This document shows positions 54,501-57,500 of a stretch of DNA of 64,000 nt, in pieces (position 1 is the stretch's first letter; every line of letters begins with the position of its first letter). The stretch lies in assembly GCF_022846255.1 (NCBI RefSeq), contig NZ_AP025682.1; one strand, 5' to 3'. The DNA comes from Escherichia coli. GTDB taxonomy: Bacteria; Pseudomonadota; Gammaproteobacteria; Enterobacterales; Enterobacteriaceae. Position numbers: made by a program.

Positions 54501-57500
54501 ACTACGTCAGCAAGGTGTGGCGTTTCCCAATGATTTTCGCCGCGACCATACCTCTGACCAGTTGCACGAAGAGTTTGATGCGAAGGATAACCAGGAACTG
54601 GAATCCTTAAACATTGAAGTCTCGGTTGCTGGCCGAATGATGACCCGTCGTATTATGGGGAAAGCCTCCTTTGTAACGTTGCAGGATGTCGGTGGCCGTA
54701 TTCAACTGTACGTTGCAAGAGATAGCCTGCCAGAAGGTGTTTATAACGATCAGTTTAAAAAATGGGATCTGGGTGACATTATCGGTGCCTGCGGTACGCT
54801 GTTTAAGACGCAAACGGGTGAGCTTTCCATTCACTGTACTGAGCTGCGCCTGCTGACTAAAGCACTACGTCCTTTACCAGATAAATTCCATGGTCTGCAG
54901 GATCAGGAAGTCCGTTATCGTCAACGTTATCTGGACCTCATCGCTAACGATAAATCCCGTCAAACGTTTGTTGTCCGTTCAAAAATTCTGGCCGCTATCC
55001 GTCAGTTCATGGTCGCACGCGGCTTTATGGAAGTAGAAACCCCGATGATGCAGGTAATTCCAGGTGGGGCATCTGCTCGCCCGTTTATTACCCATCATAA
55101 CGCTCTGGATTTAGATATGTACCTGCGTATCGCGCCGGAGCTGTATCTGAAACGTCTGGTTGTAGGCGGTTTTGAACGGGTATTCGAAATCAACCGTAAC
55201 TTCCGTAATGAAGGTATTTCTGTTCGCCATAATCCTGAGTTCACAATGATGGAACTCTACATGGCATATGCGGATTACCACGATTTGATTGAACTGACGG
55301 AGTCACTGTTCCGCACCCTGGCACAAGAGGTACTGGGTACCACTAAAGTCACTTATGGCGAGCATGTGTTTGATTTCGGCAAACCGTTTGAAAAACTCAC
55401 CATGCGCGAAGCAATCAAAAAATATCGTCCAGAAACCGATATGGCGGATCTGGATAATTTTGATGCTGCTAAAGCATTAGCTGAATCTATCGGTATTACG
55501 GTAGAGAAAAGCTGGGGGCTGGGACGTATTGTTACGGAGATCTTTGATGAAGTGGCAGAAGCACATCTGATTCAGCCAACCTTTATTACGGAATATCCGG
55601 CAGAAGTGTCCCCGCTGGCGCGCCGTAATGATGTTAACCCGGAAATCACCGACCGTTTTGAATTCTTCATCGGTGGTCGTGAAATTGGTAATGGTTTTAG
55701 CGAATTAAACGACGCAGAAGATCAGGCTGAACGTTTCCAGGAACAGGTTAACGCTAAAGCTGCAGGTGACGACGAAGCCATGTTCTATGACGAAGATTAC
55801 GTGACTGCGCTGGAATATGGCCTGCCGCCAACCGCTGGTCTGGGTATTGGTATCGACCGAATGATTATGCTGTTTACAAACAGTCATACTATTCGCGACG
55901 TTATTCTCTTCCCGGCGATGCGCCCACTGAAATAAATTTCACTTTAATGAACGAAGCAGTCAGGCGACTGCTTCGTTCGTCATTCCGCAAATCCAGTTTT
56001 GAGGAGAGACGCTTCGTTTCAAGATAACCAGCGGGTCCACTCAACTACAGCTCCTAAAAGAGAGAAAAAAGTAATGCCACAGGCAGACTCATTGGCCAGG
56101 TTATTCCGACCAGAAATGCACTAAGTAAACGAATATGTGTTTTCTCATGTGAGATAAACCAGATAATGACAAAGGATATGTTCACACCAATCACATAAAA
56201 AATTAATATTTTAGAGAATAGTGCCATTTTTTATGTTCTTCTTATCCTTCCTGGCTACTTGTAAAACTGACGGAAATAGTCATCAACGGTCATAATGCTG
56301 AGGTCAAAATCAATATCCGGTAAGTCTAAGCATTTGAGCCTGATTAAATCTTCGATTTCACTTGCGGCTAACGATGTCGTTATTGCGAAGGAGTTTTCAT
56401 TCAGTTGTCGTGGTATCCCATATTCATCAGCCACGATAGAGGAGAAATTCATATCATACATCAATGATCTTAACCTTAAGAACACTGAGGAATAAGATGA
56501 TGGATAATCAAAAGAAACAACATAAGTATTGAACTTGTTTTTACCTTCCATAATATGACTCCTATCAATATTGAACGCTCTGGGGACGCAAAACTTATTA
56601 ACCCCGAATGATGATTCTCATATAGGAGATATTCTTTTTTTTTGCTCAGTAAAGGGGATGACTTGGGACAAAAAAACGCTCTCTCTGACCATTCTTTGTG
56701 CATCCCCCTACCCTTCAGATGCTCTCCTGCATCACACCGCGGAGAGCATGAAAAATATCGTGACTCTGTACTCTCCCATCAACTGCGAATATCATCATAC
56801 TCCCGTGTTTTATCAAATTCGTGTTTCGCAAATGGGCATAGTGGGATAATTTTTCGTTTTTCCCGACGCATTTTTTCCACGACTTTCGCAACCAGCTGTT
56901 TACCAATCCCTTGCCCTTTCAGGCTTTCATCGACATCGGTATGTTCGATAATCGCTAAATTCTCTCCGGTCGGCACAAAGACAATTTCAGCGATTTGCTT
57001 GCCTTGTTCGTCATTAATGTAAAATTTATTGTGGCCTTCGCGTATTTCCATTTTACCCTCGCTTATTTATGACGGTATTTCAGCGCGCCACTCGGGCACG
57101 TATCAATCACTTTAACCACAGTGGCAACGTCGACTTCATCCGGCATGATTCACGGCTTTCGTTTGAGATTAAATAACTTGCCGTTGCCACGTACGCAATT
57201 GCCAGAATGCTGACATATCGCAGTATTGAAATAGACATCGATCTTTTCGCCGGTATAACAGCGATAACCCCCGTCCAGTAGCGCCCGATCCATGACCTTC
57301 CCTCTCTCATCAGTATGATTATCGCTATAAGCATAGCCCCGGAATCTTCATACAGCACTGGCAGTTTCCGTTGCCAGAATCTCTTCCCCTATATAGCCAA
57401 TCATTCTTACTCCCTTTGAATTACCCGCCTCATCAGAGATAATGCTTAAGAAATTTGTCACACAAGGAAGCTGATGAGACATTCATTGCCCTACCGTATG

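Follow-up and report, generated by a model that had tools for sequence, protein, structure and literature searches.

The question raised by this locus is whether two small core genes of Escherichia coli, ghoT and yjdI, carry inactivating lesions. The window, the stretch of 64,000 nucleotides that was analysed, contains at 56053-57293 the conserved E. coli interval lysU / ghoT-ghoS / yjdJ-yjdI / dcuS. Its gene order is identical to that of the K-12 map (dcuS, yjdI-yjdJ, ghoST, lysU), and all four small genes (ghoT, ghoS, yjdJ and yjdI) lie on the minus strand. The local sequence is of the B2 type, with 99.7-99.8% identity to strains 536, ChlosBP-23-1 and 377323_2f over 1.5 kb. The first-pass annotation suspected a frameshift in ghoT and an in-frame stop in yjdI. 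Pairwise alignment with K-12 upholds one suspicion and overturns the other: ghoT has no indel, and yjdI does differ, the K-12 codon being TGG. The reading that we prefer, with a probability of about 0.88, is that yjdI is a genuine and ordinary lineage-specific nonsense pseudogene, inherited and not an artefact, and that ghoT is intact. The features concerned are as follows.

56054..56227, minus strand: ghoT, intact, an open reading frame of 57 codons plus TAG; type V toxin.
56255..56551, minus strand: ghoS, intact, an open reading frame of 98 codons; type V antitoxin endoribonuclease.
56779..57051, minus strand: yjdJ, intact, an open reading frame of 90 codons; GNAT acetyltransferase, downstream of yjdI.
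57063..57293, minus strand: yjdI pseudogene, formerly 76 codons and broken at codon 48, from translation and allele alignment.
57150..57152, minus strand: premature TGA (Trp48, TGG to TGA); the substituted base is 57150, T on the plus strand and C elsewhere.
57150..57293, minus strand: remaining 5' open reading frame of yjdI, from the ORF list, with a 47-aa product (P0122 / GDA54992.1).
57063..57146, minus strand: residual 3' open reading frame of yjdI, from the ORF list, 27 codons from Met50.
57093..57098, minus strand: codons of Cys66-Pro67, the CP end of the Fer4_19 motif, 3' of the stop and so untranslated.

Read on the minus strand, 57063..57293 gives 47 codons, the TGA, 28 further in-frame codons and the normal TAA. 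The translation runs MDRALL...NLKRKP, stop, IMPDEVDV...KYRHK, normal stop. The TGA had been reported at a position where tryptophan was expected, and this is borne out, K-12 and nearly all other E. coli having Trp there. At position 57150 the plus strand has T in the window and C in K-12, 536, ChlosBP-23-1 and 377323_2f, which encode Trp48 as TGG. The lesion is a single G to A transition on the gene strand that falls on the invariant and sole Trp codon, and it shortens the product from 76 to 47 residues. Apart from the stop, the gene differs from the intact B2 allele by just one synonymous change (nt 204). Its counterpart in K-12 (YjdI, b4126, UniProt P0AF59; PF06902, Fer4_19, 'divergent 4Fe-4S mono-cluster') occupies the same locus, is likewise a 231-nt gene and has the same residue at 74 of the 76 codons; the Q3R difference is a normal B2-type variant. 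The motif CXHX3CX32CP is encoded in both, but in the window the frame is broken by the TGA inside the X32 spacer.

The position of the stop determines what is lost. With the stop read as Trp, yjdI encodes a Pfam PF06902 Fer4_19 domain (E 5.4e-30, residues 13-76) that spans the whole profile (model positions 1-64 of 64). According to a preprint on a homologous domain (bioRxiv 10.1101/2024.04.03.587993), the family has the motif CXHX3CX32CP, in which three cysteines are strictly conserved. For a spectroscopic characterisation of E. coli YjdI, this preprint cites a PhD thesis. The motif of YjdI itself reads C27-Q-H29-SGN-C33, 32 residues, C66-P67. An alignment of 20 homologues (63-87% identity) shows C27, H29, C33, P47-W48-I49 and T65-C66-P67-S68-G69-A70-L71 to be invariant, and C12 is not conserved. 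The stop removes invariant residues 48-49 and 65-71 and leaves 47 of the 76 codons, as in an internal-stop pseudogene. The 47-aa product retains only the CXHX3C half (C27, H29 and C33); C66-P67 follow the TGA, and no uninterrupted frame of the window's yjdI encodes the complete motif. In an AlphaFold model of intact YjdI (pLDDT 79.5), helix 56-64 and strand 71-75 are C-terminal to the stop. The top PDB matches of the model are all mono-cluster ferredoxins (1fxr, 1vjw, 4ov1, 2z8q and 8amp), with weak E-values of 0.09-0.3, TM scores of 0.49-0.62 and probabilities of 0.82-0.96; a sequence search of the PDB with YjdI gave no match. Judged from the sequence, the 47-aa product would be missing the third cysteine ligand together with roughly one third of the fold, from which loss of function is a straightforward inference.

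The proposed course of events is simple. A G:C to A:T transition would have turned the Trp48 codon TGG into TGA, and translation would then end after Pro47 and yield a 47-residue fragment of YjdI. Because the third Fe-S cysteine ligand, in the TCPSGAL motif, is lost, the fragment would be unable to assemble a cluster, and yjdI would be null or at best strongly reduced. The TGA allele probably had a single origin in a small B2-related clade and then persisted there. The window's clade would add to the natural knockouts of this small Fe-S protein, whose biochemistry has been glimpsed, and its strains could serve as natural yjdI-null comparators.

The downstream gene is probably little affected by the stop. 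The start of yjdJ lies 11 nt past the normal yjdI stop and has its own GAGGG ribosome-binding site; with just 84 nt left untranslated and this site in place, strong polarity on yjdJ is unlikely. The gene has 100% DNA identity to yjdJ of strain MINF_1D. Some B2 strains are reported to have a tagB/tagC autotransporter island between yjdI and ghoS (yjdK), with duplication of the yjdJ sequence (PMC6592367). The window is without this island: it has one intact copy of yjdJ, and 227 bp (56552-56778) separate yjdJ from ghoS. This spacer contains a run of nine T at 56635-56643, read as nine A in the gene direction; the run sits some 85-90 nt ahead of the ghoS start and differs in length among strains, with 10 in strain 536. 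In a scan for promoters and terminators, no candidate exceeded what shuffled sequence would give.

Stops and other lesions in yjdI have arisen repeatedly. Stops at Trp48 alone have at least four independent origins, TGA three times and TAG once. The lesions found elsewhere are these.

L017:1501-1731: Trp48 TGA on a third background, 97.9% identical to the window and 98.5% to K-12.
L018:1501-1731: Trp48 TAG on a background 99.9% identical to K-12, in L018 and 14 similar places.
L024-L027:1501-1731 and L029 (N96) 2519-2659: Trp48 TGA plus IS3 on an unrelated background.
P0120: in-frame 19-aa deletion (K46 to D64), on 26 contigs up to 231 kb long.
P0106: frameshift.
P0125, named Shigella flexneri: a different 47-aa truncated product ('...KRKS'), on at least 1000 contigs.

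A close parallel is the yjdI pseudogene of N96 (NZ_CM169999.1, AC2A8Y_RS22905), which has the same TGA at codon 48 and is called incomplete and a pseudogene by PGAP. N96 is more divergent (96.9% identity to the window over 1.7 kb), has K39R, and has an IS3-family element in place of the gene after codon 62, whereas the window is without such an element. Since background, K39R and IS3 all differ, the stop in N96 is independent of that in the window. The L018 amber allele, P0120, P0106 and P0125 resemble the window's allele in that the C-terminal, CP-containing half is removed or disrupted, but the mutations and lineages differ. In P0120 the sequence ...NLKR is joined directly to the downstream residues, so that all three cysteines are kept and the spacer is gone. 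Many shorter 'partial' forms of YjdI occur beside this product (records P0125, P0123, P0124 and P0126), and the Shigella records suggest that yjdI is disrupted, probably by insertion, throughout S. flexneri. At no fewer than 1000 contigs this 47-aa form is very common; for the window's allele, which is rare, 9-15 contigs are on record. Because many separate lesions have struck yjdI in E. coli and Shigella, the data are consistent with a dispensable gene. The window carries a rare, inherited and probably loss-of-function allele of it.

Of the stop codons, UGA is the one most prone to leak in E. coli. Near-cognate reading of UGA by tRNA-Trp inserts the original Trp, and as TGG to TGA is the sole nonsense change of this kind, the protein would be restored exactly. 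The window's allele could in this way be a tolerated hypomorph instead of a pseudogene, if tRNA-Trp reads the UGA often enough to supply functional full-length YjdI. We regard this as unlikely, though it is the alternative that survives best. It would agree with the state of the 3' part of yjdI, in which no carrier from the window's clade has a further lesion; over a stretch of just 84 nt, such an absence of decay is not informative. It would also agree with the persistence of the allele on three haplotypes, which fits neutral loss of yjdI and a tolerated hypomorph alike and cannot distinguish between them. The extent of UGA readthrough usual in E. coli, which is of the order of a percent, counts against a functional supply. 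In the N96/L024 lineage, where IS3 has also disrupted the 3' end, the same stop is part of a gene in plain decay, and a TAG version exists too, a codon that tRNA-Trp does not read. Some authentic full-length YjdI may still be made by readthrough of the UGA, and this is the main caveat to a complete null.

Selection is a further consideration. The repeated hits at Trp48 and the near-fixed disruption in S. flexneri might be non-neutral, loss or down-tuning of YjdI being advantageous in some niches and the TGA forms being leaky hypomorphs. We consider this quite improbable. There are 27 single-base routes to a stop in yjdI, of which four are transitions, and two of these four lie at W48, the others at Q28 and R45; recurrence at this codon pair of routes, TGA and TAG at W48, is what mutation alone predicts. 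W48 neatly illustrates how, in a short gene, a single Trp codon can dominate the stops that transitions can reach.

The same TGA is present in at least four further public assemblies, on three slightly different backgrounds. These are L005 (SRR15128260), L006 (DRR322657), L007 (DRR102846) and L008 (ENA assembly ERZ929318), all of which read CCG TGA ATC. L006 matches the window at every position over 6.1 kb and L007 over 4.1 kb; these two may be the same or a sister isolate, so that independence rests on L005 and L008. L005 has 27 differences from the window and L008 has 12, so that they come from different strains, yet T at 57150 is common to them; with the window they have in common a block from about 56404 to 57641, one synonymous site excepted. 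Substitutions at 55821 (lysU) and 56288 (ghoS, synonymous) are private to the window, L006 and L007, and are absent from L005, 536, ChlosBP-23-1, 377323_2f and K-12. Since L005 has the TGA without either change, the TGA is older than both.

One alternative is that a fault of sequencing or assembly produced the TGA in this one assembly and that yjdI is really intact. The window's haplotype with T at 57150 occurs in no complete E. coli genome, which is a point in favour of an error. The same base is found in the four or more other assemblies, which come from different sequencing runs, and the two on backgrounds that differ at 12 and 27 sites settle the matter: a base that recurs in independent assemblies on differing backgrounds is not an assembly error, and this earlier alternative can be set aside. 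The context, CCGTGAATC, is not a homopolymer, and the exact 47-aa product has been deposited at NCBI as well (GDA54992.1, from E. coli 'HmCmsJML164'). We rate an error as very improbable.

The allele is real and also rare. Carriers were counted with 35-mers that had the SNP at their centre, which forces each 28-base seed to include the variant. By these seed-restricted 35-mers, TGA at yjdI codon 48 occurs in one of 5,426 complete E. coli genomes (N96) and TAG at this codon in none of the 5,426. Identity-band counts with a 61-mer and a 54-mer, which gave 0 carriers, were rejected, as N96 was hidden in the 95-99% band. An exact-pattern scan of GTDB species-representative genomes did not find the mutant 46-mer, and a literature search on the accessions of the carrier samples, both run and project, returned no match. 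L009-L014 and L019-L023 were left out as evidence for the stop, the 47-aa product appearing there only because the contigs end. Three of these, the metagenome or run contigs L009, L013 and L014, stop precisely one base short of the variable position (...AAGCCGTG). A de Bruijn graph would branch there if both alleles were present in the sample. These ends may be a selection artefact, as the 47-aa query favours them and three other contigs stop 1-2 nt earlier.

A recoded UGA has very little to commend it. The codon might specify selenocysteine, or two pieces, residues 1-47 and a second piece reinitiated from Met50, might reassemble. An ATG does follow 3 nt past the TGA (CCG TGA ATC ATG) and opens a 27-codon frame to the normal stop, so that reinitiation at Met50 with fragment complementation is conceivable; no ribosome-binding site is evident ahead of Met50. 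A bacterial selenoprotein has a SECIS hairpin directly 3' of its UGA, and fold test, Rfam and allele comparison all gave a negative result for such a hairpin. Starting at the UGA, a stretch of 71 nt showed no advantage in folding over shuffled sequence (z = -0.70), an Rfam scan of 55900-57500 returned no match, and the sequence 3' of the UGA is unchanged from that of Trp-encoding strains, so that no SECIS could have co-evolved. Position 48, moreover, is an invariant Trp and not a ligand.

The other half of the question concerns the toxin-antitoxin module. The window's ghoT translates without interruption into a protein 100% identical to K-12 GhoT (b4559, YP_588474.1). It aligns as 174 nt against the 174 nt of K-12 ghoT with 0 indels; the +1 frameshift, to be corrected by a 1-nt deletion near 56100, does not exist, and the supposed deletion is an error of hand translation or of the GhoT sequence assumed for comparison. 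The sole difference from K-12 is synonymous (codon 38, TTC to TTT, window position 56114), and the DNA is 100% identical to ghoT of MINF_1D. The first-pass annotation had cautioned that its predicted ghoT read-through frame did not appear in the ORF track; the ORF list gives 56054..56227 on the minus strand as an open 57-aa frame. GhoS is the B2-type protein, with N85S relative to K-12, and the private change at 56288 in its gene is T88 ACA to ACC. The gap between ghoS and ghoT is 27 nt, on the same strand and with ghoT downstream, as in K-12. PF10753 (Toxin_GhoT_OrtT) for ghoT and PF11080 for ghoS come from the records of L006, whose sequence at this locus is that of the window; NCBIfam has no specific model matching YjdI, GhoT or GhoS.

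Compared with the type V GhoT/GhoS system of K-12, GhoT is identical, GhoS is one residue off, and order and spacing are equal. There is no notable difference, and the window's pair is the canonical system in intact form. From identity to the characterised K-12 proteins, GhoT would be expected to cause membrane-damaging toxicity, which GhoS would counter by cleavage of ghoT mRNA. Since ghoT, ghoS and yjdJ are all intact, there is no toxin-antitoxin decay, and the suggestion that the GhoT toxin had been lost with GhoS kept is refuted by two full-length genes. That ghoT is frameshifted and the module is decaying through toxin loss can be dismissed as having next to no chance of being right, as it rested on hand translation and an assumed GhoT sequence, drew nothing from computation, and is contradicted by an open frame of K-12 length beside an intact ghoS. 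Short minus-strand reading frames are easily mistranslated by hand, as this case illustrates. The importance of the result is confined largely to annotation: ghoTS should be entered as an intact module and yjdI as a W48* pseudogene.

The lesion in yjdI stands alone among its neighbours. From cadC to fumB, 13 core genes show 75 substitutions and 0 indels relative to MINF_1D, and yjdI is the only one of the 13 with an internal stop. As the sole lesion in this set, it is isolated and does not reflect general decay or poor assembly. Over 39001-64000 the overall identity to the nearest complete genome is 98.0%, and the core genes reach 98.6-100%; the modest overall figure is due to a divergent CP4-like island upstream. 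Within this island (39001-46500; DUF932, antirestriction, JAB, YeeU/CbtA and DUF4942), identity to the nearest complete genome ranges from 87 to 100% gene by gene. One of its members, a DUF5983 (YeeW-like) gene at 44822-45310 that adjoins cbtA/yeeU, is 87.6% identical to its MINF_1D counterpart. With four gap positions, an apparent internal stop and a longest open reading frame of 126 aa from 44930, it is probably a decayed island gene.
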